Source: Nitrosopumilus sp.
Lineage (GTDB): Archaea; Thermoproteota; Nitrososphaeria; Nitrososphaerales; Nitrosopumilaceae
NCBI GenBank assembly: GCA_965223425.1
Contig: OZ245003.1
Location: 1,696,001-1,760,000, forward strand
Reading direction: 5' to 3'
DNA length: 64,000 nt
Below the pieces are notes generated by a model that was not told the origin of the DNA, did not search any database, and worked only from the letters and a program-made list of their open reading frames with translations. Within the stretch, counting starts at the first letter, position 1, and every line of letters begins with the position of its first letter. Positions 4,305-61,196 of this stretch are shown piece after piece. A program made the translations under genes and the position numbers.

Positions 4305-4331
4305 GTTCTTCAAACATCCAAACATTTTTTC

Positions 4332-10628: not shown

Positions 10629-10657
10629 AAAACTATTCCATTGGTGGTGAACAATTC

Positions 10658-11056
10658 ATGAATAACGTAGAATATGAAGTAAATGCGGAATACAGACTAG
10701 ATGAGTTCAGGAAGGCCTTTGAAAAATTTGTAAAAAACCCAAAGGTGTGCGGTACGGTGGATGAATTTCACGGATATGAAGAGTCGTTTTGTGGGCTCTG
10801 GGTGTCCGGCGAGGAAGGCAATGAAATGGGCGACGGAAAGCCTGCGTTTTGCTACGGCGCGCCAGACAGGTGGAGCACCATTTGTTTGAAAGGGAATGAA
10901 ATGGGCGACGGAAAGCCCGCGCTTTCCCACTCTGTGGACTTTCTTTACGAGTTTGGCATACACAAGGACATGCGTTCCTGGCTTGAGAAGCAGGGGTTCT
11001 ATGCACAATGGTTCGACGGCGGCACTGTAATGATATACGGCAGGGACGCACTGTGA
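10658..11056 (+). CDS. Hypothetical protein, paralog of 28587-29057
   Basis: Shared TVDEF, VSGE.GN, PAF.Y, W.D.GTV motifs. Confidence 0.7.
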   Translation: MNNVEYEVNAEYRLDEFRKAFEKFVKNPKVCGTVDEFHGYEESFCGLWVSGEEGNEMGDGKPAFCYGAPDRWSTICLKGNEMGDGKPALSHSVDFLYEFGIHKDMRSWLEKQGFYAQWFDGGTVMIYGRDAL

Positions 11057-12401: not shown

Positions 12402-12452
12402 AACAGCTTATTCCGATTTGGAATGAATTCAAAAACCAAGGGAGGTAACAAA

Positions 12453-13292
12453 ATGGCGCAAGAACAAATACAGAAGGAACGGACGACAATAATTGTAATG
12501 AATGGCGGCCAGGTCAAGTCATTTAGGAAAGCAGTACAGCTGATTAATAATCAGGTTGGCGGCGAACTGACTTTCAGAATAAGGGACGGATTTATCCATT
12601 TACAAAAAATGGATCCCGGCCATGTCTGCATGGTCGACTTTAGGTTCCGTCCATCACACATTCATGAAAGTCACAAGCAGTTTGGAATACATTCAAACGA
12701 CCTGTACCAGATAACCAGACACCTGAGGAATGATTCCGAGGTGGAAATGGCAATCAAAGATAAAACCATGACCATCTTTGTATATGACGGAAGCTTCGGT
12801 ATGGATGAGGCGGTGGAAATAGCCATCAAAGATGAAACCATGACCATCCCCGCATTTGATAAAGTGTCAAAAAGACACGTACTAAAAGTCAGTGAGGGCG
12901 ACATATGTGACTGCTTCCTGCCGTGTGTAAAGTACACACACCGGATAAACATGGCAAAAGAGCATGTCGGGGAGATAACATCAAAGCTGAAACAGTTTGA
13001 TTTTATGAAAATCAGAATTGAAGACCAGAACGTCACGTACGCGGCAAAAAACAGCATCAGGGATGTAAAATTGGAACTGTGTCACGAGATCGGGGAGTGT
13101 AATGGAATTATGGATTCAGAGTATGACATGAAATTCCTGCCACAGGCATTTAAAATTTGCACGCAGATCAGCGAGTGTGAGTTGTACATTGCCAGTGAAA
13201 GTCCGCTCAAACTTGCAGTCAAAAACGATGATCTGAGCATCGATTATTACCTGGCCCCACGGATTAAAGATTCGGGCAGTGCAACGGAATAA
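12453..13292 (+). CDS. Divergent PCNA (DNA sliding clamp)-like protein
   Basis: MDPGHVCMVD near N-terminus, SPLKL and C-terminal YYLAPRI are PCNA signatures; PCNA-like length. Confidence 0.75.
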   Translation: MAQEQIQKERTTIIVMNGGQVKSFRKAVQLINNQVGGELTFRIRDGFIHLQKMDPGHVCMVDFRFRPSHIHESHKQFGIHSNDLYQITRHLRNDSEVEMAIKDKTMTIFVYDGSFGMDEAVEIAIKDETMTIPAFDKVSKRHVLKVSEGDICDCFLPCVKYTHRINMAKEHVGEITSKLKQFDFMKIRIEDQNVTYAAKNSIRDVKLELCHEIGECNGIMDSEYDMKFLPQAFKICTQISECELYIASESPLKLAVKNDDLSIDYYLAPRIKDSGSATE

Positions 13293-13294
13293 AA

Positions 13295-15583
13295 ATGGAC
13301 AAACAAAAAATCTACAAGCCGACACTAATCTCTGAGAACGCACTGGATATTCCGAATCCCGGATATGCCGGCAAGATGCCCGATGGCACGCAGGACGGCT
13401 TTATCTCAACCAAGATAGAGGAGGACGTAACAATCCAGAGGATATCCCACGATCTGTACAAGCATGCGTCATCGGGATTCCGCGAACTGTTTGTCAATGA
13501 GGCAAGATTCTGCAGACATGCGCGCGACTGCCATGACGCAGACCCGGTCATAAACGTGAAAATAGGCAAGAACCGCGAGCTGATAATCGAGGGCCGTGAC
13601 TCCATGGGGATGTCATGGGAGACATTCAGCAACGTGTATACGGTACTTGGCAGGTCCACCAACTTTGACGGCCAGACGCCGGGACAGTTCGGCTTTGGCC
13701 GGGCGGCATACACATGTCTCTCCGAAATCATGATAATGGAGGTCCACTCGCGCGAGACCGGCGAAAAGTTTGCCGTGATGGGCAAAAACGGAGTGGGGTG
13801 GCAGACCGGACTTCCGACACCGGAAGACATGGACTTTTTCGGATGCAGAATAACCATGACATTGTACGATGACGTAGATATCAGGTCAATCATCAGAATG
13901 ATGAAAAACTGCTGCAAACTGAGCGGCGTCCGGGCCACGCTGGACACAAGGGACGCACTGGACATCATCGATTTTGGCTACGGGGATGACCAAAGTGCAT
14001 ACCGCGCATACGAACCAGGAACTCTTGAAGGCATGTATAACAAGTTGATTGATACTGAACGCTGCGATCACGTGCTAGACATCTCTGCCGAAGAAGGCGG
14101 AATAGAGATGATGATCGGATACCAAGTGCAAACATGGTCAGAGGAGAGGGGTCCTAAGCGTAGAATGATACACACGTATACTGAAAATAACGAATGCTAT
14201 CTTGCAGGCGTTCCAATTGGGGAGCTGAAAATCGACAGTAATGTGCATTCTCTGCTGGGTTCTGCAAATACAATTCTGGTCAACATCAAAGACGAGCGCA
14301 CGTACAGTCCCACCCCCGACAGGGAGAGGCTAAAGGACGATGCGGAGAAAAGGATATGCGACATAGTGGAGAACAGGATATGGTGCGAGATTAGGGACCG
14401 CTTTTCCGGCATCAAAACAGTCGATGACTATGTCAATCATCCCAACAGGGAATTCATTGACGGGGTTTTCAACAGCAGAGACGACCATTGGTCATTTATG
14501 ACTGAAAACCACATGGAACTGGGAAGGGCCATGGCAGTCACCCTAGTTGATGAAAACAAACGGCACATAAATCTTGAATACATCGCACCCGGCCGGAAGG
14601 AGCTGCTGATCACGGACAAAATGAGCAGGTCAAAGGTATCTGCTGCCAAAGAGTTCAGTCAGGCAGTGAAGGTGGTCAGGCCCCTTGATTATGAAAACAC
14701 CCATTCACTCTTTGAGAACCTGGGGGTGCGCACCCTTGATGACTATATCGCCAGCAACGGCATAACTGTCAAAATGATTGAGAGTGACGATGTACCGGAG
14801 CCGTTTGTAATCCATGAGACACATTATGGTTACTGGAATTCAGAAAACCATAATGTATTGTTCAAAAAATCAACCAGAAACACGACTGACTGCGACATGC
14901 CGGACAACGTCATCATAGCAAAGAAAAACTTTGGAATGCTGTGTGATTTGCTGAGAACAGTTGAAACAGAATACCGTGTAACAAAGTACAAAAAAACGGC
15001 AAAGGGCGGACTGCGTGAGGAAGAGTTCTTTGAGCGTGTGAGAAAATCGGCATATGCCACAAATGACGGGCCAATGGGCATAGATGACATATCCGAGACG
15101 GATAAAAAAATCGTCATGGTACCATACGAGCGTGAATCGCTTGCAAAATACATGCAGTCCGACAAGATTCTATACGTTGTCGGCAGCGATGACAAGCTCT
15201 TTGAGATGTCTGCGCATCTAAAGATGCACAAGAGGGAATTCCACATATCAGACACGAAATATAGATTCAGGGATTATAATAAAGAGATCATGTTTCCTGA
15301 GGAATATTTCAAACTGATAAAAGGGTATATTGCTCATGTCGATTCTTTCTCAGACCAGATCAAGATATGCTCGGCATACATACATGGATACCGCGCGATC
15401 AAAAACGAGGACGCAAGAAAGATGTTTCTGGGATTCGTGCTAGGTACAAAACACAACCATGACATCCGATACCCCGATGTATCACAAATGCTGGAAAGGG
15501 CGTTTCACATCGATGAGTCGCTGGAAAAGAAAACAAAGGAAAATGGACAAACAAAAAATCTACAAGCCGACACTAATCTCTGA
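13295..15583 (+). CDS. GHKL (Hsp90/HATPase-like) N-terminal domain protein, rIIA-like, copy 1
   Basis: DLY...FRELFVNE, RDSMGM, LGRST, GQFGFG motifs; TPDRERL; 762 aa. Confidence 0.7.
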   Translation: MDKQKIYKPTLISENALDIPNPGYAGKMPDGTQDGFISTKIEEDVTIQRISHDLYKHASSGFRELFVNEARFCRHARDCHDADPVINVKIGKNRELIIEGRDSMGMSWETFSNVYTVLGRSTNFDGQTPGQFGFGRAAYTCLSEIMIMEVHSRETGEKFAVMGKNGVGWQTGLPTPEDMDFFGCRITMTLYDDVDIRSIIRMMKNCCKLSGVRATLDTRDALDIIDFGYGDDQSAYRAYEPGTLEGMYNKLIDTERCDHVLDISAEEGGIEMMIGYQVQTWSEERGPKRRMIHTYTENNECYLAGVPIGELKIDSNVHSLLGSANTILVNIKDERTYSPTPDRERLKDDAEKRICDIVENRIWCEIRDRFSGIKTVDDYVNHPNREFIDGVFNSRDDHWSFMTENHMELGRAMAVTLVDENKRHINLEYIAPGRKELLITDKMSRSKVSAAKEFSQAVKVVRPLDYENTHSLFENLGVRTLDDYIASNGITVKMIESDDVPEPFVIHETHYGYWNSENHNVLFKKSTRNTTDCDMPDNVIIAKKNFGMLCDLLRTVETEYRVTKYKKTAKGGLREEEFFERVRKSAYATNDGPMGIDDISETDKKIVMVPYERESLAKYMQSDKILYVVGSDDKLFEMSAHLKMHKREFHISDTKYRFRDYNKEIMFPEEYFKLIKGYIAHVDSFSDQIKICSAYIHGYRAIKNEDARKMFLGFVLGTKHNHDIRYPDVSQMLERAFHIDESLEKKTKENGQTKNLQADTNL

Positions 15584-17819
15584 GAACGCACTGGATATTC
15601 CGAATCCCGGATATGCCGGCAAGATGCCCGATGGCACGCAGGACGGCTTTATCTCAACCAAGATAGAGGAGGACGTAACAATCCAGAGGATATCCCACGA
15701 TCTGTACAAGCATGCGTCATCGGGATTCCGCGAACTGTTTGTCAATGAGGCAAGATTCTGCAGACATGCGCGCGACTGCCATGACGCAGACCCGGTCATA
15801 AACGTGAAAATAGGCAAGAACCGCGAGCTGATAATCGAGGGCCGTGACTCCATGGGGATGTCATGGGAGACATTCAGCAACGTGTATACGGTACTTGGCA
15901 GGTCCACCAACTTTGACGGCCAGACGCCGGGACAGTTCGGCTTTGGCCGGGCGGCATACACATGTCTCTCCGAAATCATGATAATGGAGGTCCACTCGCG
16001 CGAGACCGGCGAAAAGTTTGCCGTGATGGGCAAAAACGGAGTGGGGTGGCAGACCGGACTTCCGACACCGGAAGACATGGACTTTTTCGGATGCAGAATA
16101 ACCATGACATTGTACGATGACGTAGATATCAGGTCAATCATCAGAATGATGAAAAACTGCTGCAAACTGAGCGGCGTCCGGGCCACGCTGGACATAAGGG
16201 ACGCACTGGACATCACCGGTTTCAGCATCCATGAGCACGAAAGAAAGTACCTCACATACAAACCGGGAACTCTTGAAGGCATGTATTACGCGTCGACTTA
16301 CTGTGACGACGGCGAGCACCTGCTAAACATCTCTGCCGAAGAAGGCGGAATAGAGATGATGATCGGATACAAAACGAAAGAACGGTCAGAAGGAAGAGGC
16401 CCTAAACGCAGAAGTGTGTCCTCGTATATTGAAAATAACGAATGCTATCTTGCAGGCGTTCCAATTGACGAGCTGAAAATCGACAGTAATGTGCATTCTC
16501 TGCTGGGTTCTGCAAATACAATTCTGGTCAACATCAAAGACGAGCGCACGTACAGTCCCACCCCCGACAGGGAGAGGCTAAAGGACGATGCGGAGAAAAG
16601 GATATGCGACATAGTGGAGAACGCGATAGGGTGCGAGATTAGGGACCGCTTTTCCGGCATCAAAACAGTCAATGACTATGTCAACCATCCCGACAGGAAA
16701 TTCATTGACGGGATTTGCAACAACGAACTCAACTTTCGGTCAATTCTGACTGAGAACCTCATGGAACTGGGAAGGGTCCTGGCAGTCACCCTAGTTGATG
16801 AAAACAAACGGCACATAAATCTTGAAGACATCGCACCCGGCCGGAAGGAGCTGCTGATCACGGACAAAATGAGCAGGTCAAAGATATCTGCCGCCAAAGA
16901 GTTCAGTCCGGCAGTGAAGGTGGTCAGGCCCCTTGATTATGAAAACACCCGTTCACTCTTTGAGAACCTGGGGGTGCGCACCCTTGATGACTATATCGCC
17001 AGCAACGGCATAACTGTCAAAATGATTGAGAGTGACGATGCCGTGCGGCCGTTTGTAATCCATGAGACGTCCCACAGCGACGCGGACATTGGATGCGGCA
17101 GTGAGCAGTTCAGAAAAACAACCACAAACACGACTGACTGCGACATGCCGGACAACGTCATCATAGCAAATAAAAACTTTGGAATGCTGTGTGATTTGCT
17201 GCGGACATTCGACACCAAATACCGCGTAACAAAGTATAGAAAAACGGCAAAGGGCGGACTGCGTGAGGAAGAGTTCCTTGAGCGTGTGAGAAAATCGACA
17301 TATGCCACAAATGACGGGCCAATGGGCATAGATGACATATCCGAGACGGATAAAAAAATCGTCATGGTACCGTACGACAGGGAATCGCTTGCAAAATACA
17401 TTCCATCCGAGGAGATACTGTACGTTGTAGGCACCTACGACAAGCTCTTTGAGGTGTCGGCCCATCTGAATGTGAATGGGAGGAAATTTCACGTGTCAAT
17501 CATAAGATGCGGCTATGGCCTTAGGAGTGAGTCAACCATGTTCCCTGAGAAACACATCAAACTGATGGAGGAATGTCTGGTTTACGACACGGAATGGCGC
17601 GACCAGATCAAGATATGTTTGGCGTACATAGACGGCCACCACACGATCAAAAACGACAACATAAAAAAGATGTTTCTGGGATTCGTGTCAGGTTCAAAAC
17701 ACAACTACAACATACGATACCCCGATGTATCACAAATGCTGGAAAGGGCGCTTTGCATCGACGAAGAACTGCAGAACCAAACAAAGGAAAATGGCACACA
17801 CGTCACTGGCAATACTTGA
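15543..17819 (+). CDS. GHKL domain rIIA-like protein, tandem copy 2
   Basis: First ~215 aa identical to copy 1, then alternating identical and divergent blocks. Confidence 0.7.
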   Translation: MDKQKIYKPTLISENALDIPNPGYAGKMPDGTQDGFISTKIEEDVTIQRISHDLYKHASSGFRELFVNEARFCRHARDCHDADPVINVKIGKNRELIIEGRDSMGMSWETFSNVYTVLGRSTNFDGQTPGQFGFGRAAYTCLSEIMIMEVHSRETGEKFAVMGKNGVGWQTGLPTPEDMDFFGCRITMTLYDDVDIRSIIRMMKNCCKLSGVRATLDIRDALDITGFSIHEHERKYLTYKPGTLEGMYYASTYCDDGEHLLNISAEEGGIEMMIGYKTKERSEGRGPKRRSVSSYIENNECYLAGVPIDELKIDSNVHSLLGSANTILVNIKDERTYSPTPDRERLKDDAEKRICDIVENAIGCEIRDRFSGIKTVNDYVNHPDRKFIDGICNNELNFRSILTENLMELGRVLAVTLVDENKRHINLEDIAPGRKELLITDKMSRSKISAAKEFSPAVKVVRPLDYENTRSLFENLGVRTLDDYIASNGITVKMIESDDAVRPFVIHETSHSDADIGCGSEQFRKTTTNTTDCDMPDNVIIANKNFGMLCDLLRTFDTKYRVTKYRKTAKGGLREEEFLERVRKSTYATNDGPMGIDDISETDKKIVMVPYDRESLAKYIPSEEILYVVGTYDKLFEVSAHLNVNGRKFHVSIIRCGYGLRSESTMFPEKHIKLMEECLVYDTEWRDQIKICLAYIDGHHTIKNDNIKKMFLGFVSGSKHNYNIRYPDVSQMLERALCIDEELQNQTKENGTHVTGNT

Positions 17820-18570
17820 AGAGCGCCATAATCTGCTGATCATCCAGACCGGCAGCGGGAAGGTGGCAACAGTTCCAAGGTCGGAGTATATAGTCCTCAA
17901 GTTCAAGCACTACAACGGCAACAGGATATTTTACGACTTTGGCAAGGCAGTAGGAGAAGAAGAATGCAGTACTGCAAGAATAGCGGAGACATACGATGAC
18001 GGCATCTTTAACTGCTGGTACAAAAAACAGCACGTTCAGATATCTGACACAAAGTCCATAGCTCATGCAATCATGACAAAAAACAGGGACGAGTATGTCG
18101 ACATATTTGCGCGCTGGTACGGAATCCGGCAGCAGAAAGAGACAATTGACATGATTATCCGAAACTACACGGATCGTGTCAGCAATGTCAGCTCTGATAT
18201 GTATGTGATAGACGGCGTGTTTGCAGTTGGCTCAAGTGCTGCAGATTATTATTCAAAAAATCCAGCTGATATGTATGTGATAGACGGCGTGTTTGCAGTT
18301 GACAGTCACGGTGTCTCACATTACATGGAGGACAACAGGTGGAATTCCCTGTGTCTTGTTGCAAATTCGATCAGGGAGCCAAAAAATATCGAACTGCCGG
18401 GCATCGGACTTGTCGCGTTAAACGAGATAACGCAGACAATACTTGCAAAAATACTGTTTCTGCTGTACCCGAAAGAGGACACCGTGTTTTTGAACCAGAT
18501 CCCGCAGCACCTGAAGGATCATGTCAGAAAGACAATGGAGCAGAACAAAAAAACAGAGACTACTGCATGA
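17791..18570 (+). CDS. Hypothetical protein coupled to the GHKL genes
   Basis: Overlaps copy 2 stop; internal DMYVIDGVFAV duplication. Confidence 0.7.
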   Translation: MAHTSLAILEERHNLLIIQTGSGKVATVPRSEYIVLKFKHYNGNRIFYDFGKAVGEEECSTARIAETYDDGIFNCWYKKQHVQISDTKSIAHAIMTKNRDEYVDIFARWYGIRQQKETIDMIIRNYTDRVSNVSSDMYVIDGVFAVGSSAADYYSKNPADMYVIDGVFAVDSHGVSHYMEDNRWNSLCLVANSIREPKNIELPGIGLVALNEITQTILAKILFLLYPKEDTVFLNQIPQHLKDHVRKTMEQNKKTETTA

Positions 18571-18749
18571 GAGATGCAGTGTATAAGGCCAATACTGGCA
18601 CGGCCATCACATTCACGGCAGAAGCGCGTGATGGGGCCGTTGCCATGACGACAGGGATGTCGAATTTAGAAACCAACAAAGGAGGTTGATTGCATGGATA
18701 TGGAAAATGAATATCAAGAAAGACCCGAATGGGACTGGATACAGAGAAA

Positions 18750-19190
18750 ATGAGCAACGTAAACGTCAGGACATCACCGCCCTACGACCGGGCATGTGAG
18801 ATTCTGCAAAAGACAAACGACGGAGAAGAACTGTCAGGCAGTCATCTGAGGCTGGTAGAGATGATGGTCAATGGCAATGACATTACAGAGAAGATGGAGG
18901 TGGAGTTTGAAAAACTCTACGAGAACGTCAGAACTGGATATGTCAAGCCATGGCTGTTTGGAATACGGCACATGACTGCTGACCACGAGGGATACATCTA
19001 CTGGCGCGGCAGACAGGTGGAGCACTACTCCCATGATAGCTATAAGGGGATGCGCCAATCCGCAAAGGACCTGGAAAGAAGGGCCCTTATTCTGGAATCA
19101 AGGGGAATCAAGGTGACTTTTGGATCCCTTTTCATGGAATGGAACAACAAGTCCGGGCCATGTTCCAAACTGACGTGCCATAAGAAATGA
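18750..19190 (+). CDS. Hypothetical protein
   Basis: Coupled by ATGA to a 19-aa ORF (18694-18753) that follows an SD-hairpin motif; DHEGYIYWRG..VEHY. Confidence 0.65.
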   Translation: MSNVNVRTSPPYDRACEILQKTNDGEELSGSHLRLVEMMVNGNDITEKMEVEFEKLYENVRTGYVKPWLFGIRHMTADHEGYIYWRGRQVEHYSHDSYKGMRQSAKDLERRALILESRGIKVTFGSLFMEWNNKSGPCSKLTCHKK

Positions 19191-19381: not shown

Positions 19382-19500
19382 ATGACAAGCATGATCAGAC
19401 CGCTCAAACAGTCACCGGCAGAAAACACAAATCAGGAAGACGGCACCGTCTTCAACGCGGAAACAATTCCGCAAACAGATCAACAAAGGAGGTTGATAAA

Positions 19501-19767
19501 ATGAGACAGCAAACCAAACTAGAAAAACCAAAAACAAAAACACAGGATCCGGCAAACATCCCGGAAACTGCAAGAAAAATAGCGGCAATAGACCTTCTCG
19601 ACAGGCCGGACAAAGTACACATACAAAGGACGGCAGCTGCAATCGCAGTCAAATACGGAGATCAGGTATACATGGTGACATTACACCACATGGTACCGGA
19701 GACGGCACAGGTGCTGAGAACCAGTGACAATTCAATTGTCGGATTCTCGGCAGTTGCAGGCGGATAA
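19501..19767 (+). CDS. Hypothetical protein, copy 1 (target of the mini-CRISPR spacer)
   Basis: Paralog at 27768-28034; follows SD-hairpin motif. Confidence 0.7.
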   Translation: MRQQTKLEKPKTKTQDPANIPETARKIAAIDLLDRPDKVHIQRTAAAIAVKYGDQVYMVTLHHMVPETAQVLRTSDNSIVGFSAVAGG

Positions 19768-19779
19768 ACCATCCACAAC

Positions 19780-20394
19780 ATGAAAGACAGTAACATACCC
19801 AAACTGGGGGAGACAGACGGCACGTCATTTGATGAGAAGATAATCCATCAGATGTGGTTTGAGCCGCAATCACATTTCTGGTGGCTCATAGCAGAGTACG
19901 ACCCGGAAGACGATATCGCGTTTGGATTCGCAAATCTCGACTCGGATATGAACGCCGAATGGGGACACATCCCCATTTCAGAGATAAGGGGAATTGGGGC
20001 AGTACAAGACGACAAATGGAAGCCGGTAAAGTTTCCGGAAGGAAAACAGATGGCAAAAAACCGCGCATCGGCCGCCTTTTCAAATTCGCAGAAAACCGGA
20101 AGTGGGTCGGATCTGGACGGCACAGAAAATGAAATACGCCGCCTGTTTTTTAGAATCATAGAACTGCAGAAGGAAAAAAGCATTTGCAAAGAATACCATG
20201 ACAGCACATCAGATGAGGAAGTGCTTGGAATTGCCATCAGCAACTATGTGGAATGGGACGGAGAGAGAATCTTCCAGATCGCAAAATCGGCATTTGAGGA
20301 CAGCAACTTTCGCCAGTTTAACTCCGAGTTTGAGGATTTGTGGAATGCAAATGTAGATGATGTACAAGCACACATCAAGAAGCGTGACAGTTAA
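19780..20394 (+). CDS. DUF2958-like protein
   Basis: WWLIAEYDPEDDIAFGFANL...AEWG. Confidence 0.65.
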   Translation: MKDSNIPKLGETDGTSFDEKIIHQMWFEPQSHFWWLIAEYDPEDDIAFGFANLDSDMNAEWGHIPISEIRGIGAVQDDKWKPVKFPEGKQMAKNRASAAFSNSQKTGSGSDLDGTENEIRRLFFRIIELQKEKSICKEYHDSTSDEEVLGIAISNYVEWDGERIFQIAKSAFEDSNFRQFNSEFEDLWNANVDDVQAHIKKRDS

Positions 20395-20440
20395 CTCCGA
20401 GTTTGAGGATTTGCGGAATGCAAGGGGCCACTGCTGAGGC

Positions 20441-20990: not shown

Positions 20991-21079
20991 AATGGAACGA
21001 GTTTCAGAAAAAATGACTCGGCAGCCAACGGCATGGAATGACTCCATGCTGCAACAAATCAACAAAGGAGGTTGATAAT

Positions 21080-21634
21080 ATGGAAGAAAAAGCAATAGAA
21101 ACAAGAATACACGAAGACAAAATACTTGAGATATACCAGGACGAGTTCCCGGAATCGCCAAGAGAATGTGACAACCTGGGAATCATGATATGCGGACACC
21201 AAAATTATGATCTTGGCGACGAGCAATATGACAAAGACACCTTCGATGGGAAGGTCTCGGCGGCAACAGAAAAACTCAACTTGCACCTGATGGACCACAG
21301 CGGGCTTTGGATGAGCACGGGACCATTTGCGATGGATCCGCAGGGATGGGATTCCGGAATAGTCGGCGTCATATACACCACCGAACAGAAAATCACAGAG
21401 ATGTTTGGGAATCGTAAAAGGCCATCAAAAGAAAAGATAGCCGGCATGCTGGAAGAAGAGGTGAAAATATACAACCAGTATCTGCAGGGAGATATATACT
21501 GCTATACGATCTCTGAAGTCAAGACATGCTCGCTTGGAGAAGAACACAAAGAAATCATCGACTCGTGCAGTGGGTTCTACAACGTTGATGACATCATAAG
21601 CGATGTCGGAGCAGAGAACTGGGAGTGCAAATAA
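21080..21634 (+). CDS. Phage/plasmid-type conserved hypothetical protein
   Basis: ESPRE.DNLG, DHSGL, WDSG.VG, YNQYLQGDIY, DSCSGFY motifs. Confidence 0.75.
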   Translation: MEEKAIETRIHEDKILEIYQDEFPESPRECDNLGIMICGHQNYDLGDEQYDKDTFDGKVSAATEKLNLHLMDHSGLWMSTGPFAMDPQGWDSGIVGVIYTTEQKITEMFGNRKRPSKEKIAGMLEEEVKIYNQYLQGDIYCYTISEVKTCSLGEEHKEIIDSCSGFYNVDDIISDVGAENWECK

Positions 21635-22446: not shown

Positions 22447-22533
22447 AACACAGAGTATCAATTGTTTTGGTACACAAATACAAGCCGGAATTGTCTGGCT
22501 TTAAAAACAAAATCAACAAAGGAGGTTGATAAC

Positions 22534-22941
22534 ATGAAGAAATATTATGTGGAATGGCGCGACGACGACCAACAGGAAAACGATGTGGTGGAAGCTACAA
22601 CCGCCGACGAAGCAATGAAAAAAGTAACAGACGAAATGGACAAAAGAAAAGAGGACTGGACTATCAGAGAAACCGTGACAATTTTCGCGGATGAAGAAAA
22701 AACCAAGCAGTTGTTAACCAAAGAATACAACCGTGATCCTGACGAGCCAGCCTGCACAGATCCGGCGGGCCATGATTGGGAAGAATCCCAAGGCAGAACC
22801 GGTGTACCCAATTACGACACCATTGTAAGCTGGTGTGAGAAATGCAAACTCAATAAAAAGATAATTGGTGAGGAGATCCCCGACGGCTCAGCAGGCGACA
22901 TTTTTTATTCGTACGCAGAGGAGGAGGGTGAAAACCAATGA
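22534..22941 (+). CDS. Hypothetical protein
   Basis: Follows SD-hairpin motif; EPAC...HDW...CEKC. Confidence 0.7.
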   Translation: MKKYYVEWRDDDQQENDVVEATTADEAMKKVTDEMDKRKEDWTIRETVTIFADEEKTKQLLTKEYNRDPDEPACTDPAGHDWEESQGRTGVPNYDTIVSWCEKCKLNKKIIGEEIPDGSAGDIFYSYAEEEGENQ

Positions 22942-25360: not shown

Positions 25361-25396
25361 CTTTCTGAAAACAGATCAACAAAGGAGGTTGATAAC

Positions 25397-25735
25397 ATGA
25401 AAAATGAAAAAACAATATTGGAACGGACCGGGTCGAAAATGAATAAAGGCGATAAGCAGTACCACCTTTTTTCAGACCCCGGACACGGATGGCTCCGTGT
25501 CAAAAAATCAGAGATAGACTCGCTGGGAATAGCAGAGAAGATCTCAAAGTACAGCCACACAAGCAAGAGATGGAAGACAAAGTACGTGTTTCTTGAGGAG
25601 GACGACGACATGGAAGTGTTCATCGCGGCAAAGAAAAAACAGAATCCCGGCTGGGAGCTTGATGCCGTAGAACACACACTGCCGGAGAGGGAATCGATAA
25701 TCCGGAGCTTTGAGACATATGACCCAAAATTCTGA
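25397..25735 (+). CDS. Phage/plasmid-type conserved hypothetical protein
   Basis: SDPGHGWL.V, ISKYS, FLEEDDD motifs. Confidence 0.75.
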   Translation: MKNEKTILERTGSKMNKGDKQYHLFSDPGHGWLRVKKSEIDSLGIAEKISKYSHTSKRWKTKYVFLEEDDDMEVFIAAKKKQNPGWELDAVEHTLPERESIIRSFETYDPKF

Positions 25736-26561: not shown

Positions 26562-26935
26562 TGTCGCAAGACGGCTTTGAAACCATAAAAAAGATGAAGC
26601 TGAACCACCTGCCAAACGAGGCGGAACTGGTAATGCAGAGGCAGCGAAACTCGTACATACCAAAGGACAAGTTCCAGTTCGGGATACCGACCACGTTTGT
26701 CTCACCTGAGAACGGCGAGACTGTATGGAACTCCGGGCCATCAATCCAGCTCGAGCAGATACCGGAACTCATTGAGATGCTAAGGGATGTATACGAGAGA
26801 TATTCCGGAGACAAAGATCCCAAGGCGGCAAGGACATGTACGGTTAAGGATGTGTTCAGCTCGGTGAAAAACAAACTGGATAAAATCAATCCCAAGGCGG
26901 CAAGGACATGTACGTTTGCAGATGTTGCAGAATAG
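26561..26935 (+). CDS. Hypothetical protein
   Basis: Coupled to ArdC-like gene; internal PKAARTCT duplication. Confidence 0.6.
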   Translation: MSQDGFETIKKMKLNHLPNEAELVMQRQRNSYIPKDKFQFGIPTTFVSPENGETVWNSGPSIQLEQIPELIEMLRDVYERYSGDKDPKAARTCTVKDVFSSVKNKLDKINPKAARTCTFADVAE

Positions 26936-27172
26936 AAGCAATGATGCAAATCACTGCAGGCAACGATGTTACAGTATGGCGCGCTCGATAATTACAGATG
27001 CCATGACAAAACACCCCGCCAAGATAATACATGACGCGTGGAAAATCCTGGGAATCGCCCAGGATTCCATCCGCCTAAGAAGGCACAAAAGGGCACTCAA
27101 GAAGATAAGGCGGGAACTCGTGGGAATTCTTGACTCCTAACATTTTTTAGGATGCAGGGCGAGCAAAAGAAC

Positions 27173-27319
27173 ATGTCAAAGGCAAAACAGGTCACAGATG
27201 AGAACGATCTCCGGGCAAACGAAGAATACGCAATAGAGCAGTACGAATCAGGCGCAGACCGACCAAAGTCATTTAAAACTCCTGAAGAGTTAATAGCTGA
27301 TCTTCACGAACATAAATGA
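27173..27319 (+). CDS. Putative short antitoxin (not in ORF track)
   Basis: 48 aa ending KSFKTPEELIADL, like RelB/DinJ C-termini; ATGA overlap with toxin. Confidence 0.55.
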   Translation: MSKAKQVTDENDLRANEEYAIEQYESGADRPKSFKTPEELIADLHEHK

Positions 27320-27591: not shown

Positions 27592-27767
27592 TGCAGTCTT
27601 TACTGACTGTATTATCCAAACCAGTCTTATCTTGAAACGGAAGAACCAACTGAGTGGACGGATATTGACAAAACATATGACAGTTCTGAAAAATATTTTT
27701 CAGAAAATACGGATGCAGACACTGTCTGCAAGCAACAAAAAAACAAATCAACATGGAGGTTGATAAA

Positions 27768-28034
27768 ATGAGACAGCAAACCAAACTAGAAAAACCAAAA
27801 ACAAAAACACAGGATCCGGCAAACATCCCGGAAACTGCAAGAAAAATAGCGGCAGTAGATCTTCTCAGCGGAGCAGAAAAAGTCCACATACAAAGGACGG
27901 CAGCTGCAATCGCAGTCAAATGTGAGGGACAGGTATACATGGTGACATTGCATCATATGGTGCCAGAAACTGCACAGGTGCTGAGAACCAGTGACAATTC
28001 AATTGTCGGATTCTCCGCAGTTGCAGGCGGATAA
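27768..28034 (+). CDS. Hypothetical protein, copy 2 of 19501-19767
   Basis: ~90% aa identity by eye. Confidence 0.7.
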   Translation: MRQQTKLEKPKTKTQDPANIPETARKIAAVDLLSGAEKVHIQRTAAAIAVKCEGQVYMVTLHHMVPETAQVLRTSDNSIVGFSAVAGG

Positions 28035-28049
28035 ACCATTCATAGCAGC

Positions 28050-28571
28050 ATGGAAAACAACGGAATACCCAAACTGGAAGAGACAGACTGCACACCTTAT
28101 GATGAGAAGACCATCCATCAAAGGTATACAAACAGGGACTCGTTTACCTGGCTTATGGCAGAGTATGACCCGGAGACTGAGACATACTTTGGATTTGCAA
28201 ACCTGAATTCAGATATTGATGCAGAATGGGGTTTGATACCAAAGTCGGATCTTGATGCATTCAGTGCGGTGTTGGATGCAGAATGGAGTCCTGCTCCGTT
28301 CTCAAAGGCGAAGATACTGAACCAGTCGATTCACTCTCCCCTGAGAAGGATGGAGATGACAGAGGACGGGAAGATAAAGATCATAAAGGAGAACGGGAAT
28401 GCCACGTACAACTACGGATTTGTTCCGCAGGGGTACTTTCAGGTCGGGTGCATGTTTATCAAGACTGACAGAAGGGCACTCAACTATGCAAAGAAGATGA
28501 ATCCGAACTTTGAGTATGCAATAGTTGAGCGGAAGGCCATGGCGGCATCTGCAAAAAGCAGTGCAAAATAG
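28050..28571 (+). CDS. DUF2958-like protein, paralog of 19780-20394 with a different C-terminus
   Basis: TWLMAEYDPETETYFGFANL...AEWG. Confidence 0.65.
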   Translation: MENNGIPKLEETDCTPYDEKTIHQRYTNRDSFTWLMAEYDPETETYFGFANLNSDIDAEWGLIPKSDLDAFSAVLDAEWSPAPFSKAKILNQSIHSPLRRMEMTEDGKIKIIKENGNATYNYGFVPQGYFQVGCMFIKTDRRALNYAKKMNPNFEYAIVERKAMAASAKSSAK

Positions 28572-30128: not shown

Positions 30129-30300
30129 GGTACAACAGCCGGGATTTTCCTGCCTTGAAAACAGAATCAGCAAAGGAGGTTGATAACATGGAAAAAGAAG
30201 CAATAGAAACAAGAATACACGAAGACAAAACAACGGCAGAATATTATGCAGAAATGCCGGAACTGCATCCTCACATGTGTAGTTGCGTGGAGTGCGACTG

Positions 30301-31824: not shown

Positions 31825-32032
31825 CAAGATATAATGCGCATCGGTATTATTTGGTGCGCAACATGCAGCTTGGAAAAATTTCCAAGACCGCAGAAGACAA
31901 ATCAACAAAGGAGGTTGATAAAATGAGAAAACCAGAAACAATCAAAAGATACGGTGAAACCGGATCACGGAAAATCAACTCACAACAAAAACCCGCATTT
32001 TATGCAAACCGCGCAGGAGAGGTCAGAGCACA

Positions 32033-32521
32033 ATGACATGCATATCTGAATATAAAAAACAGCTTGAATTCTACAGTTCATCAAGCGGTAACCAATATGC
32101 CGATGTGGAAACGGCAATAGAGATGTTTGCCGAAGTGCGTCTGTCCCCAAGAGACCTGGCATATCAGGTAAAGGAGTTTGCAGATTCCACTGGAACAAAA
32201 CTGGAGGATGTGGATGCCTGCTATGTTGCATATGACCACATATTGCAGATGGCAAGAGACAAAATCATCAAAGTCCTGGACTTTGACATCGTAAATGACA
32301 TCACAGACGGAACGGAATTCTACACATGCGGAAGCGGCATGGACACCTCGTTTGACTACTCCCAGAAGGCAAAGGATCAGCTGGTGAAGGAGCTGATAAA
32401 TGAGGATGTGGAACTGTGCGAAGTCGGAAAAGTTCTGAGGGATGATTTTGTCAAAGTTTTTCTGGAATACGTGGATATTGATACCACAGACATCAGAATG
32501 CACAGGAGGCTAAAAAAATAA
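32033..32521 (+). CDS. Hypothetical acidic protein
   Basis: 162-aa ORF with GAGG upstream. Confidence 0.7.
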   Translation: MTCISEYKKQLEFYSSSSGNQYADVETAIEMFAEVRLSPRDLAYQVKEFADSTGTKLEDVDACYVAYDHILQMARDKIIKVLDFDIVNDITDGTEFYTCGSGMDTSFDYSQKAKDQLVKELINEDVELCEVGKVLRDDFVKVFLEYVDIDTTDIRMHRRLKK

Positions 32522-33270
32522 TGTCGGGAATCCACTTTGACTGGTCAAAGAACTGGAATGAAGAAACCGGGGAAGACATTATGGATACCGTGTGTCCAAA
32601 CAGCGAACACCACGAGAAATACGGCCGTGACTGGGAAACAGAATACGATTCCACAACTGATCTGAACGGAAACCCGTGCGAGCCATACAATGGATGCCCA
32701 TGCTGTGAGGATGATTCAGAAAGAATCGACGTAATGTGGAATGTAATCTGGCCGCTGGACTATTCAGGAATGGTAGATGACGGATATGACGAATCCAGCA
32801 AAAAAGAGAACCGCCTGAGAAGAATAAGGATACTGAACGAGACTCCGTGCGCATGCATTGAGAATGTCGAGACCGGCCAGTGGTTCATGTGTCTTAGAGG
32901 TGCGGGAATGGACTTTGGTCCTGAAATAGCATATGCGTTCCATCTGGCACAAAAATGGATCCCGGATTGGCTGCTAATGGAAATAGACATGGAGTACTGC
33001 AAGCAGCTATTATCCAAAAAGCAATTCAAGACACTGCAAAGAATTGCTGGACAGCAGATAGTACGTGGGCAGAAGGAGTTTGCACAAATGCGGTCAAAAT
33101 GGAGTGTGGGCGGCATAAAAAAGCGGCACACGGAGGAGTCCGGGTATTCGGATGGATACTATTCCCAAAGGACACCGGCTGAGAAGAGGATCCTGGACGG
33201 GATTAATTTACTGGGCCCCGTCGCCACGCCACCAAAACAAAAATCCATAGGGAGGAAAACGCGGAGATGA
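32521..33270 (+). CDS. Phage/plasmid-type conserved hypothetical protein
   Basis: MWN..WPL, L.GAGMD...EIAYAF. Confidence 0.7.
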   Translation: MSGIHFDWSKNWNEETGEDIMDTVCPNSEHHEKYGRDWETEYDSTTDLNGNPCEPYNGCPCCEDDSERIDVMWNVIWPLDYSGMVDDGYDESSKKENRLRRIRILNETPCACIENVETGQWFMCLRGAGMDFGPEIAYAFHLAQKWIPDWLLMEIDMEYCKQLLSKKQFKTLQRIAGQQIVRGQKEFAQMRSKWSVGGIKKRHTEESGYSDGYYSQRTPAEKRILDGINLLGPVATPPKQKSIGRKTRR

Positions 33271-33530
33271 AGGCGGCAAAGTTTGGGAACGGGGATGCGA
33301 TAGAGAGATACATACACTGTTCGATGTGCTTGGACACCGTCCCTACCGGACAGAGCCCGCAGGAATGGTCGCGCTATGAGGTGGGGTTAACAAAGTGGGG
33401 AATTCAGATATGGTGCGCACGCCACAAATGCAACATAATGCACATAAACTTTGAGGGAGAGAGGCACCCGGCAGACATGACGGCAACAGAGCCGAGCAGA
33501 AAAAGCCGTCAGATGAAGGAGGAGGAATAA
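33267..33530 (+). CDS. Small Cys/His protein
   Basis: HCSMC, SPQEW, VGLT.WGIQIWC.RH..N....FEG. Confidence 0.7.
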   Translation: MKAAKFGNGDAIERYIHCSMCLDTVPTGQSPQEWSRYEVGLTKWGIQIWCARHKCNIMHINFEGERHPADMTATEPSRKSRQMKEEE

Positions 33531-33925
33531 TGGTGGGAACAAACGCGCTGGCAAAGACATTTGAGGCACTGGACCGGCACGACTCACACATGAGAACATT
33601 TCGTCGTCTGTACTGCGAGTCAGGACAGACAGCAAGAAAGGCGTACATGTTTGTCAATTCCTCAACAAAAACAAGGATTGAAAAAATAATGAAAAAGTGT
33701 GAGAGCTGCAAGTACACAAAGCTGCAACCGAGAACAATAGTGCTGGTCTACGAGGCATTGGCCGCCAAAGGTGAGATAGAGGTTCTGGCAGAGTTGTGCA
33801 GGCAGATCAGTTCAAAGAAGGCATACAGGCTATGCAACAAAAGAACCCAGAGGACAATACAGACGCTGTCCCAAGATGTGAAGGGAAAATCACACAAAAC
33901 ACCAAAAAAACAAAAAAGGGAATAA
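33530..33925 (+). CDS. Basic hypothetical protein
   Basis: GGAGGAGG SD; last ORF before the ncRNA zone. Confidence 0.65.
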   Translation: MVGTNALAKTFEALDRHDSHMRTFRRLYCESGQTARKAYMFVNSSTKTRIEKIMKKCESCKYTKLQPRTIVLVYEALAAKGEIEVLAELCRQISSKKAYRLCNKRTQRTIQTLSQDVKGKSHKTPKKQKRE

Positions 33926-34137
33926 TCCCCCTGATGATTCTGTAGCAAATAAAATGAGCCTCCATACCGGGGTGTTGTTTGCTGCAGATGCTTGACTGTC
34001 GTTGTATGACGAGAGTCGGGTGGCCCAGTCCACACGGGCTTGGCCGAAACCATGAGAGTGTGCCGATGAACATCGGCATACTGATGATGGCAGCAATGTC
34101 ATCAGATGCACAGATATTGTGCAGTCATGGTCGGGGA
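33926..34137 (+). ncRNA. Hammerhead-core-containing multi-hairpin RNA, copy 1
   Basis: TCCCC-CTGATGA ... GGCC/GGCC-GAAA-CCATGA ... TCATGG-TC-GGGGA. Confidence 0.55.
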
Positions 34138-34232
34138 AAAAGAATCAGACTAACAGAATAAATCAACTACTTGCTCCCCATGATTCTGAGGCAAAGGAAA
34201 AGTTATCACCAAAAAAACAAAAAAGGGAATAA

Positions 34233-34444
34233 TCCCCCTGATGATTCTGTAGCAAATAAAATGAGCCTCCATACCGGGGTGTTGCTTGCTGCAGATGCTT
34301 GACTGTCGTTGTATGACGAGAGTCGGGTGGCCCAGTCCACACGGGCTTGGCCGAAACCATGAGAGTGTGCCGATGAACATCGGCATACTGATGATGGCAG
34401 CAATGTCATCAGATGCACAGATATTGTGCAGTCATGGTCGGGGA
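34233..34444 (+). ncRNA. Hammerhead-core-containing multi-hairpin RNA, copy 2 (307-bp period)
   Basis: One substitution relative to copy 1. Confidence 0.55.
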
Positions 34445-34634
34445 AATAATAATGATCACGTAATAATCAAATCGTCCTTACTTACCCTGATTCTGAGGCA
34501 AAGGAGAAACGGCCCCACAAACGTGGTGCCGGCAGGCCGTACAAGCTGCATGCCATTCAATGTTTTGTATTTGATAATATGTCAAATGCGCAAGCTGCAT
34601 CTGCTGATTGCAGACCCGCGCGTGTTTACGTGAA

Positions 34635-34791
34635 TCGTTCTCTCTTGGAGTGGGACATTAAATGAGGACGATCCTCAAATGGGATCGCCTCCCACACTGC
34701 AAGCGCAGGGTTAGGCATGTCGTTTTGGAGTGCTCTTTGCGTCAACCGGGCCTCAGCTCGGTTCTATCCTGCAATCCAAAAAAAAGAATGA
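34635..34791 (+). ncRNA. Further structured non-coding segment
   Basis: TCGTTCT/AGAATGA, TTGGA/TCCAA, GTGGGA/TCCCAC, CGATCC/GGATCG, AACCGGGC/GCTCGGTT stems. Confidence 0.4.
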
Positions 34792-34909
34792 GTTAAATGA
34801 AAGATCCGGACATTCGAATGTGAGTAAGCTTAAAAGGAATTGTGGATTGTAATGATGTTGCAGAAAATCACCCAAAAATCAATATTGTCTGACATTATAA
34901 ATTCAGATG

Positions 34910-35016
34910 ATCACAGTACAGGAAAAGACATGGACGTATTGACTTGGTTCTCAGCACCTGCGCCGTCTCCGGCACCATGTAATCACAGTACAGGAAAAGA
35001 CATGGACGTATTGACT
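34910..35016 (+). CRISPR. Mini CRISPR-like array: two identical 35-nt repeats and one 37-nt spacer; no cas genes in window
   Basis: Repeat ATCACAGTACAGGAAAAGACATGGACGTATTGACT at 34910 and 34982; spacer reverse complement matches 19687-19723 at 34/37. Confidence 0.65.
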
Positions 35017-35052
35017 CTTATTGCCAATAACATACGTCTGGCTTGCGTGAAA

Positions 35053-35089
35053 CCAAGTTCACCCAAGTTCACCCAAGTTCACCCAAGTT
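35053..35089. repeat. 10-bp tandem repeat CCAAGTTCAC x3.7
   Basis: Directly visible, upstream of the RM gene. Confidence 0.85.
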
Positions 35090-35122
35090 ATAATAAGATA
35101 AAATTCACGGGGTGTCCATAAA

Positions 35123-39279
<4,157 letters not shown>

Positions 39280-39280
<1 letters not shown>

Positions 39281-39909
39281 TGCAGGACAATATCACCGAC
39301 TTTGCCCTTGAAGAGTACAGGGAACACTACAAGAACGATAAAATAGAAAAAAACGACATCTTCTTCTACATCTACGGCATTTTACACCACGGCGGGTACA
39401 GGAAGAAATATGCAAACAACCTGACACGTGAGCTGCCACACATTCCCATGGCACCGGACTTTTTAGCATTTTCAAAAATTGGAAAAGAATTGGCAGATCT
39501 ACATTTATCATATGAGACATGCAAGAGATATGATTTGGGAAAACCAAAATCAGAATTTGGCAGATACGCAAAGATGTCGTTTGCAAAAAAGAAGGAAAAC
39601 GGCAGGCAGGTAACTGACACTACAACCCTGAGGATCAACGGGATAACCGTCTTTGAGAATATCCCTGATGTCAAGTACAGGGTAAACGGCAGGACGCCAT
39701 TGGAATGGGCCATAGACCGCTACAGGAGAACAGTAGACAAGGACAGCGGCATAGTAAATGACGCAACAGACATTGACGTCATACCGCTCATTGAAAGGCT
39801 CATACATGTAGGGGTGGAATCAGACAGGCTGGTATCCGGACTTCCAAAGGAGTTTGAGCCGAAAAACTGGGACCCGAAAAAAACAGGAATGGACAAGTTC
39901 ATTGGTTGA
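39280..39909 (+). CDS. Type ISP RM C-terminal domain encoded as a separate ORF
   Basis: DNITD, DIFFYIYGILH, LPHIP, GKELADLHLSYE, Y.VNGRTPLEW. Confidence 0.8.
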
Positions 39910-52138: not shown

Positions 52139-52171
52139 AGTTATGAAGCGGTTCTGAGATATTCTAGCATG

Positions 52172-53545
52172 TCAGTAGTTCCCAGATGTAGGTTTGTGCC
52201 CAGATGTAGGTTTGTGCCCAGATGCCGGTGCGTTACCGCATAACTGCAATGCAAAGATCCAGATTAGGCTACGGCGTGCAAGACGTCATGAAAGTCGAAT
52301 TACAAGACGATCTGATCGCACACCAGTACAATATAACATCAAACCGGTTTAAAATCCTGCGCTCGTCGTTTCAAAAGCTTGGCATGCCAATGTCTGAGAG
52401 GCACAACGCCGTATACGGATGCGGCGACATACTGGACGTGCCAATCAGGGCGTCTGAGAGAAACACGTTTGTAGAATCCCCCGTACGGCGCAGCAGGCTT
52501 CAAGACACGGGTGCACGTACGCCTGATGCAGGCCTGGTCATGTCTGCAGTCCGTGGCGTCGAACCGGCAGACGTGCAGGGCTGGTGTGCAAGGACGCTGG
52601 CACGCACGGTGCGGCACGCCCGCCATACAGGAATGCTGCAGGACATCGACGCCATTGCAATAGACGTTACGGACATACCATACTTGGAGAGCAGCTGCAG
52701 GAGCATACAGAAAAGTCGCGTCCAAAGGCAGGAACATCCACGTTTCTCTCGTATGTCGCAGTGCACGGAGTCGGCAGGGACTCCTCGCAGATTGTCCCAG
52801 AGTCGAAGCTGCTGCCGGCAAAGGAAAAACTGGCCGATTTTATAGCCAAAACACGCACGAAAATCCCCAGAGGGGGGGGAGCACACTCAAAGACCGTGTT
52901 CCTGTACGACCGCGCCTTTTACAGCGCTGACTGCATGACAGAGGCAGGAAGGGGCGGGTGCCGCTACATCATGCCTGTCATCATGAACTCCAAGATCAGG
53001 AGGATAGTCAAGATGTACAAGGACGGAAAGGCAAGCCAGGTATCGCAGCAGTCAATGACCAACAAAGACGGCGCAACTGTGACCTACAACCTTGTAATTG
53101 TCAAAAGAGACAGGAAGAAGAAGAAGAAAAAGGGGGAGGGGGAAGAGGAGGAAGAGGAGCAATACATTGCGTTTGCAACAAACATTCCCATCAGGAGCGC
53201 CAGAGCCATGACAGGCATCATACCGGAGCAGTACCGCAAGATGGGGCATCGAGACGGGGTTTCGCGTCATAAAGGAGATCATGGGCAGGACATGCAGCAA
53301 CTCCCTGTCTGTGAGGCTGCTGATGTTTTACATGCCGCTGCTGCTGTACAACCTGTGGAGGATTGCCAGGTTCTGCCTTGATGCGGGAAAGAGGCATGGA
53401 AGAGTGTCTTCTGCGGGAAAAAAACTCACCATGGCGTTGTTTATCGTGTACATTACAAGCAGAAACGAGTTGTTTGTCAATGATCGAGGCAAGTAGAACC
53501 GATGCCAGTTGCGGTTGCGGTAAATCTACATCTGGGAACTACTGA
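52172..53545 (+). mobile_element. ISH3-like insertion sequence with frameshifted transposase
   Basis: TIRs TCAGTAGTTCCCAGATGTAG / CTACATCTGGGAACTACTGA; CATG target duplication (52168-52171, 53546-53549); AIDVTDIPY, DRAFYS, IETGFR motifs spread over three frames. Confidence 0.85.
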
Positions 53546-60792: not shown

Positions 60793-60795
60793 TAA

Positions 60796-61196
60796 CGTCT
60801 GCCGGTTCGACGCCACGGACTGCAGACATGACCAGGTCTGCATCAGGCGTACGTGCACCCGTGTCTTGAAGCCTGTTGTGCCGTACGAGGGATTCTACAA
60901 ACGTGTTTCTCTCAGACGCCCTGATTGGCACGTCCAGTATGTCGCCGCATCCGTATACGGCGTTGTGCCTCTCAGACATTGGCATGCCAAGCTTTTGAAA
61001 CGACGAGCGCAGGATTTTAAACCGGTTTGATGTTATATTGTACTGGTGTGCGATCAGATCGTCGTGTAATTCGACTTTCATGACGTCTTGCACACCGTAA
61101 CCTAATCTGGATCTTTGCATTGCAATATGCGGTAACGCACCGGCATCTGGGCACAAGCATACATCTGGGCACAAATCTACATCTGGGAACTACTGA
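60796..61196 (-). mobile_element. Left-end fragment of a second ISH3-like copy
   Basis: Reverse complement of 52172-52575 with few changes. Confidence 0.85.

Follow-up and report, generated by a model that had tools for sequence, protein, structure and literature searches.

We detected a small repeat-insert-repeat unit at positions 34910–35016 of a 64,000-nucleotide (nt) stretch of the Nitrosopumilus sp. assembly GCA_965223425.1. This stretch, the window, corresponds to positions 1696001–1760000 of contig OZ245003.1 (C1, with a G+C content of 0.41), in a genome of 2.64 Mb with a second contig of 123 kb; features are given in window positions, and C1 marks positions in the contig. Two copies of a 35-nt segment, ATCACAGTACAGGAAAAGACATGGACGTATTGACT, lie on the + strand at 34910–34944 and 34982–35016 and are 100% identical to each other. 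Between them is a 37-nt insert (34945–34981, + strand) that is unique on that strand. The length of the insert falls within the range of canonical spacers in this genome (34–38 nt), and the duplication measures 35 nt, or 36 nt with the shared next base, the canonical host repeats being 36 nt long. A reading of this DNA from its letters alone (hereafter the sequence-only reading) had described a Cas-less mini-CRISPR array, and the layout of two identical 35-nt repeats around a 37-nt spacer is confirmed. The unit is indeed remote from any cas gene: it is intergenic, between the open reading frame (ORF) 33530–33925 and a Type ISP restriction-modification gene, no cas genes are found on the island that carries it, and Cas1 is 367 kb away. 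The sequence after copy 2 (35017–35055, + strand) is unique and represents the original downstream flank. With up to 3 mismatches allowed, neither the window nor the genome contains a third copy of the repeat, and the best ungapped match downstream of copy 2 is 19/35, with a null 95th percentile of 20. The second spacer once suspected after copy 2 is not there, because no third repeat follows.

The unit is real and is not an assembly artefact. A 97-nt contig spans 34915–35011 with 0 differences in each of the runs X1, X2 and X3, at a depth like that of the flanks, and no contig in these three runs skips the 72 nt. Runs X1 and X3 represent one sample and X2 comes from another study; the assembly may itself have been built from one of the three. 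This check covered the 34910 unit alone among the 28 units described below.

The insert matches a gene of the island itself. In reverse complement, it agrees at 34/37 positions with 19687–19723, within the 88-codon ORF 19501–19767, and at 31/37 positions with 27954–27990, within the paralogous ORF 27753–28034 (both matches on the − strand). Shuffled-window controls gave no match in 100 trials. A third copy of the gene, at C1:1427101–1427137, also agrees at 31/37 positions, which brings the genomic copies to three, two in the window and one at C1:1427 kb. No Pfam family was found for ORF 19501–19767. The two internal mismatches to 19687–19723 are synonymous third positions (GTA/GTG for valine and GCA/GCG for alanine), and the third mismatch is the last base of the insert, which would turn CAC (histidine) into TAC (tyrosine). 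At its leader-side end, the insert is identical over bases 1–16 to all three resident copies, which also have in common the flank CAC, 5′ in the sense of the insert. Because it differs from these resident copies, the insert must stem from a fourth, diverged copy of the island's own 88-amino-acid gene. Both window matches and the synonymous differences had been noted in the sequence-only reading, and its proposal that the spacer was taken from a related element is consistent with an insert that is unlike every resident copy and differs internally from the closest one in synonymous positions. A 29-nt core of the insert had 0 exact matches in three contig collections (genome, metagenome and viral), in an exact search that misses near matches, and a perfect match elsewhere was therefore not obtained.

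Immediately upstream of the unit is an AT-rich stretch of 70 nt (34840–34909, + strand) with ~30% G+C, counted by eye, against ~0.46–0.48 for the island; across window 1–40 kb, G+C is ~0.42–0.49. The AT richness noted in the sequence-only reading is borne out to this extent, in intergenic DNA on a mobile island. It contains a TATA-like sequence, TTATAAAT, at 34895–34902, recognized by eye and at most a putative promoter. The unit is placed between this TATA-like box and the Type ISP gene.

The host genome contains two canonical arrays. In array 1, 74 repeats of 36 nt (R1) alternate with 73 spacers of 34–38 nt. The array adjoins intact genes for Cas4 (82.7 bits), Cas2 (46 bits) and Cas1 (208.6 bits), all of them open frames, and a type I-B effector set comprising Cas7, Cas5, Cas3 and Cas6 is found beside it. 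The leader of array 1 is on the right in + coordinates, and its leader/repeat junction reads ...GGACT/GTCT. Array 2 is an orphan without cas genes, 13.5 kb before the window and next to genes like those for TraG/VirB4 and VirD4; its 7 repeats are of another 36-nt sequence (R2), which contains a 7-bp hairpin, and its spacers measure 35–38 nt. The R1 repeat is unstructured (0.0 kcal/mol). As for a type III effector, no match to Cmr2 was found, and Csm1 is represented only by a 22-bit fragment with a stop, in a genome that is 99.99% complete. The earlier suggestion of an antisense CRISPR RNA (crRNA) suited to type III targeting is without basis here, because no type III effector gene was found. 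Only 1/79 canonical spacers matches the genome. This is spacer 71 of array 1 (C1:1362329–1362362), identical at 34/34 positions to C1:198216–198249, where the flank is TAT; it could represent tolerated self-targeting or a non-permissive flank. A C/D-box small-RNA-like match below the Rfam gathering scores (sR1, 31.2 bits, E 0.00018) is present at C1:1686843–1686898.

The 34910 repeat itself matches no cas-linked array, contrary to the earlier proposal of a mini-array that borrows the host's Cas proteins: it is identical to the repeat of array 1 at 14/36 positions and, with the next downstream base, to that of the orphan array 2 at 22/36. The site as a whole resembles array 2. When the empty site is reconstructed and compared with the array-2 repeat preceded by the final 14 nt of its leader, 30/50 positions agree in the same register (register-corrected p 2e-5). 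As assembled, with the insert after copy 1, the site scores 29/50, a level of at least 29/50 being reached by only 6 non-array places of 5.27 million. The identity is patchy, comprising the junction, a GAAAAG block in the middle of the repeat, and ATTGA. On the leader side, the last 14 nt agree at 8/14 positions with the array-2 leader end (p 0.015) and the likeness fades beyond 20 nt (11/30, p 0.13), while a gapped local alignment of the 34910 locus to array 2 over 236 nt does not stand out from shuffled controls (p 0.10). The leader ends in CAGG in 3/4 R2-type arrays and in GATG at the 34910 unit.

The 34910 repeat was absent from 400 other genomes of the class when up to 3 mismatches were allowed, and public genome and viral contig collections gave 0 exact matches. 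Nor did it match an Rfam CRISPR-DR family at E up to 1, whereas R1 and R2 give DR7 and DR16. Repeats of the R2 type are found in 13/400 other genomes of the class, all 13 of the same family, as arrays of 38–164 copies in 10/13 and as 1–5 copies in the other three. Across these 13 genomes, the 7-bp hairpin is kept by covarying, paired changes. The 34910 repeat has lost it, with a predicted energy of −3.2 kcal/mol, against −9.7 kcal/mol for R2, and only 2/7 Watson-Crick pairs at the homologous positions, as read by eye. By these repeats, an R2-type integrase exists in close relatives of the host, and the island may have met such an integrase in an earlier host.

The 34910 unit is one of 28 A-B-A units in the genome, each with a different duplicated segment (A) of 33–39 nt, an insert (B) of 34–40 nt and a period of 71–77 nt. 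Five further units with the same period and different repeats first surfaced in a self-comparison of the window. The 28 were picked by eye from 139 candidate rows of a genome scan, from which the rows of arrays 1 and 2, low-complexity sequences and tandem repeats were dropped. An automatic filter over spacings of 30–400 returned 24 unique repeat pairs at 70–74 and 0–7 in each other 5-nt bin. The sizes of the units match the geometry of the host type I-B array, with its 36-nt repeats and 34–38-nt spacers. The duplicated copies are identical in 18/28 units and diverged in 10/28. Periods are divisible by three in 13/28 units, and 6 of the 7 units in open frames of at least 250 codons are in frame. 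The other 27 duplicated segments have no overall likeness to R1 or R2 (mean 15.0, random 15.0); the unit 722645 reaches 25/50 to R2.

The island holds 6/28 units within 24 kb, where simple arithmetic gives ~0.26 expected. The copies have diverged in 4/6 of these island units, which suggests that insertion events accumulated over time. All five that accompany the 34910 unit are described on the + strand. The unit at 10815–10925 (36-nt duplication, copies alike at 33/36, 39-nt insert, period 75) is in frame in ORF 10610–11056, and part of ORF 18729–19190, the neighbour of the 88-codon gene, recurs in its insert in diverged form (27/39, core 22/23). Those at 12740–12848 (37-nt duplication, 34/37, 35-nt insert, period 72) and 18194–18301 (36-nt duplication, 36/36, 36-nt insert, period 72) are in frame in ORFs 12423–13292 and 17725–18570, respectively. 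At 20318–20423, a unit with a 33-nt duplication (32/33), a 40-nt insert and a period of 73 lies at the end of ORF 19780–20394 (DUF2958), and its insert agrees at 34/35 positions with C1:1650118–1650152. The fifth, at 26817–26925 (37-nt duplication, 33/37, 35-nt insert, period 72), has an uninterrupted counterpart of its site in a paralogous element at C1:1428 kb.

Sources for the inserts were found elsewhere in the same genome for 16/28 units, with 15 ungapped matches at no fewer than 29 of 35–40 positions and one match with a gap; shuffled controls gave 22–26. A match of the unit 532092 was set aside, being a paralogue of the whole unit and not a source of its insert. The flanks of the inserts and the flanks of their sources do not match each other, and the flanks of 14 source sites show no common motif that could serve as a protospacer-adjacent motif (PAM). 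Among the 15 inserts compared with their sources (examples are the units C1:168273, 1123482, 1174183 and 1341215), mismatches affect 14/45 of the first three bases by copy 1, 21/466 of the middle bases and 5/45 of those at the other end; in the five units that could be oriented by the junction motif, 7/15 of the leader-side bases are mismatched. This excess could be attributed to imprecise processing on the PAM side or to selection against self-targeting. The junction motif of array 1, CT/GT, is present with at least 3/4 bases at one end in 12/28 units, with 2.9 expected (binomial p 1e-5).

Uninterrupted, "empty" sites were found for 10/28 units, in paralogues or homologues. Eight of the units are in multi-copy DNA, and 1–35 paralogous copies each span the uninterrupted site. 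The unit 2401614 adds 25 amino acids to a PLD-SNF2 helicase that are absent from 13/13 aligned homologues. For the unit 18194, in ORF 17725–18570, the motif is single in 26/26 aligned homologues, and 25 have no insert. For ORF 12423–13292, no homologue was found but itself. DNA-level empty sites for the units 2401614 and 849893 were not found in 40 genomes of the genus, which are too diverged to inform. The paralogues 19780–20394 and 28050–28571 were considered as an empty site for the unit 20318 and rejected, their C-termini being unalignable there.

Taken together, the sizes of the 28 units, the sources of their inserts, the duplications, the junction motif and the presence of intact adaptation genes indicate stray integration by Cas1-Cas2. 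We consider that the 34910 unit is probably not a working mini-CRISPR but a scar, a "neo-CRISPR" of natural origin left when Cas1-Cas2 once integrated off target into a pseudo-repeat. With 27 more units that have arbitrary "repeats", many of them in genes, the genome would therefore be one that collects stray spacer insertions. In the proposed sequence of events, a Cas1-Cas2 integrase loaded with a 37-nt prespacer, from the copy of the 88-amino-acid gene in a related mobile element, would have attacked a non-CRISPR site of an integrated conjugative-plasmid-like island that resembles an R2-type leader end and repeat. Two staggered attacks one repeat length apart, followed by gap repair, would leave the 35–36-nt target duplicated on either side of the insert. 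The event possibly took place in an earlier host with R2-type machinery. We infer Cas1-Cas2 as the agent of the insertion at 34910, and the product, a one-spacer neo-CRISPR, presumably yields no working crRNA. The sequence-only reading had named an insertion with a long target duplication as the outcome that would overturn it; given the 27 sister units, that outcome is not far from what we propose, if Cas1-Cas2 is taken as the agent.

Several observations weigh against this interpretation. The 34910 unit differs from the other 27 as a real mini-array would: it is intergenic, it has an AT-rich stretch and a TATA-like box upstream, it is repeat- and leader-like, and its island lies near a stand-alone array. 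The derivation of the insert from a related element's gene, and its synonymous differences from the resident copy that it resembles most, fit the pattern of conflict between elements. No empty site for the unit was found, the DNA at 34500–35500 being unmatched in 40 relatives outside the source genome, and the protein of the neighbouring ORF 32521–33270 has no real match in 400 class genomes, with one match at 19 bits. The only Cas1 of the genome is beside array 1, whose repeat the 34910 site does not resemble (14/36), and the likeness to R2 therefore needs a former host or cross-recognition. Since R1 is unstructured, the missing hairpin would be compatible with processing by the host Cas6.

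One alternative is a working Cas-less mini-CRISPR of the island, which would be transcribed from the TATA-like box and processed by the host type I-B system into a crRNA that excludes related conjugative elements with a matching variant of the 88-amino-acid gene. Its intergenic position, the AT-rich DNA with TTATAAAT upstream and the two identical repeats all suit such an array, as do the 30/50 likeness of repeat and leader end to array 2 and the ATTGA in the 3′ part of the repeat, at the position of the handles ATTGAAGC and ATTGAAAC of arrays 2 and 1. So does an insert that is unlike all three resident copies and differs internally from the closest in synonymous positions only. Thaumarchaeal integrative-conjugative elements (ICEs) are described in excerpts of PMC6563490 as carrying stand-alone arrays, and virus-borne mini-arrays, in those of PMC6858448, as targeting close relatives. 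However, in the passages available from PMC8616872 and PMC6858448, the repeats of known mini-arrays match those of a host cas-linked array fully or almost fully, whereas here identity is 14/36 to array 1 and 22/36 to array 2. The conserved R2-type hairpin is not kept, Rfam yields a CRISPR-DR match (E up to 1) for both host repeats but not for this one, and the repeat is found nowhere else in the genome, the class genomes or the collections searched. Each of the three resident copies matches the first 16 bases of the insert and has the CAC flank, so that a functional type I crRNA would put the host chromosome at risk of being cut. The 27 sister units with arbitrary repeats offer a simpler origin, and we regard a working mini-array as unlikely. 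A related view is that a CRISPR locus has been caught at birth, an off-target one-spacer array that is transcribed from the TATA-like box and used by the host type I-B system against rival islands. This is distinctly unlikely; if true, it would mean that mobile elements gain arrays with new repeat sequences, the 27 sister scars being failed tries.

The unit could also be a decayed but true R2-type array, in which a solitary old repeat and leader, homologous to array 2 by descent, later took up one spacer in the ordinary way; the resemblance would then reflect ancestry and not the choice of a site. In favour of this, the likeness crosses the junction into the leader (8/14 and 22/36); array 2 is 13.5 kb upstream of the window, in neighbouring DNA with conjugation genes, and stand-alone repeats are reported from archaeal viruses and conjugative plasmids in the portions of PMC6858448 available. 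However, the likeness to the leader does not persist past 20 nt (11/30, p 0.13) and the 236-nt gapped alignment has p 0.10, the repeat has diverged by ~39% without compensatory changes in the stem, unlike natural R2 variants, and the leader ends in GATG where 3/4 R2-type arrays have CAGG. We find descent from a true array very unlikely. Integration machinery as the maker of the unit is common to the footprint we favour, the working mini-array and the decayed array. An origin without Cas1-Cas2, be it an assembly artefact, a templated insertion left by template switching during replication, or the work of a different integrase (a casposase, for example), could draw on the partial second Cas1-like frame at C1:1379849–1380046 and on the unexplained mismatches at the insert ends (14/45 in the first three bases, 21/466 in the middle). 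Against it, contigs from runs of two studies bridge the 34910 unit; 10/28 units have diverged copies and 6/7 in long open frames are in frame, neither of which artefacts would show. Sizes are held tightly to the repeat and spacer lengths of the arrays, and the junction motif matches the leader/repeat junction of array 1. Target duplications of casposons are 14–15 bp, which we counted against a casposase origin. An origin of this kind is most improbable.

The carrying island is plasmid- or ICE-like, not viral. It contains genes for ArdC-N, DUF2958, MazE and the Type ISP restriction-modification protein, with TraG/VirB4- and VirD4-like genes upstream, and no capsid or terminase families were found among the 30 island frames scanned. 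A viral carrier, as in the archaeal-virus precedent cited in the sequence-only reading, is not supported. Nearly all long frames in window 1–40 kb are on the + strand. Two tRNA-Ile genes and att-like repeats lie between the island and the region of array 2, with which it may form one element; these tRNA-Ile genes (868–955 and 2002–2091) are set amid several direct repeats of 100–700 nt (778–3595), an arrangement that resembles the result of several integrations at a single tRNA gene. At C1:1427–1431 kb, a related element has left remnants that have four stretches in common with the island at 91–97% identity (window 3555–4980, 19479–19775, 26902–27187 and 27680–28044).

Just downstream of the unit, the Type ISP gene (35150–39280, + strand; Mrr_cat_2, ResIII, ISP_coupler, N6_Mtase and Type_ISP_C) looks damaged. 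Its homology begins at ~35150, but the frame has its first start only at 35402, the ATG at 35117 belonging to another frame; the C-terminal specificity domain is split across 35402–39280 and 39157–39909. Four copies of a 10-nt tandem repeat (35053–35092) lie immediately downstream of the unit, and a 307-nt tandem duplication, 93% identical over 302 nt, is located just upstream of the unit at 33900–34508. Many island genes, among them the 88-codon target gene, have a recurring motif of 40–70 nt at their start or ahead of it (6917–6978, 7772–7830, 19473–19539, 21053–21122, 22504–22542, 25366–25417, 30137–30230 and 31893–31942), which may be a shared promoter, leader or N-terminus. Two adjacent genes of 2.26 kb (~760–790 codons) at 13292–17794 are 89% identical, and neither has a Pfam family. 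A 404-nt inverted repeat (52171–52574 and 60795–61197, 97% identical) surrounds a segment with a G+C content of 0.46–0.52, which may be another mobile element.

With 28 footprints, sources for 16 and empty sites for 10, this genome offers natural data on the sites at which a type I-B integrase goes astray, on the cost of such events and on how new arrays might arise. In view of in-frame additions of 24–25 residues, such as that in the PLD-SNF2 helicase, CRISPR adaptation would act here as a gene-reshaping mutagen. For annotation, stray integration should be considered for a one-spacer "mini-array" with unique repeats before it is interpreted as a mobile element's weapon. Our literature search turned up no description of a natural genome with many off-target spacer integrations.

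The closest precedent is experimental. Off-target integration that creates a neo-CRISPR was reported for the type I-E system of E. coli with over-produced Cas1-Cas2 (Nivala, Shipman and Church, 2018, as represented in the available text of 10.1101/148544, PMC6698737, PMC7054753 and PMC11788318). Within that text, the natural evidence, from two other species, is called "circumstantial" (10.1101/148544). The neo-CRISPR so described and the 34910 unit have in common a spacer-length insert, a repeat-length duplication, a non-CRISPR site, the presence of Cas1-Cas2 and the possibility of seeding a new array. Here, by contrast, the events occurred in nature, in an archaeon whose system is of type I-B; 28 of them are fixed, they differ in age and several are in frame inside proteins, with a hot spot on a mobile island and one site that is strongly repeat- and leader-like. 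In the part of PMC6698737 that deals with Pyrococcus furiosus Cas1-Cas2 in vitro, off-target sites have the leader-repeat junction and scattered repeat positions in common, which is the same patchy identity as at 34910 (the junction, GAAAAG and ATTGA). That work used plasmid DNA in vitro, whereas ours concerns a genomic footprint.

Mini-CRISPR arrays and stand-alone repeats borne by viruses and plasmids (Medvedeva et al., 2019, PMC6858448; reviewed in PMC8616872) resemble the 34910 unit, in the excerpts available, in having one spacer between two repeats, in lying between genes of a mobile element away from any cas genes, in following a stretch that is leader-like, and in a spacer related to a gene of the carrier's close relatives. 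The 34910 unit differs from them in that its repeat comes from no cas-linked array, its carrier is plasmid- or ICE-like, not viral, and the resident copies keep a 16-nt perfect match at the leader-side end. Stand-alone arrays on thaumarchaeal ICEs (Krupovic et al., 2019, PMC6563490, as far as its available passages describe them) belong to the same host group, judged by the names on homologues of a chromosomal helicase, which indicate an ammonia-oxidising archaeon of the Nitrosopumilaceae kind, and array 2, with 7 repeats, no cas genes and neighbouring TraG/VirB4- and VirD4-like genes, is much like them. Those arrays have the repeats of host cas-linked arrays and dozens of spacers, whereas the 34910 unit has one spacer and a repeat of its own.

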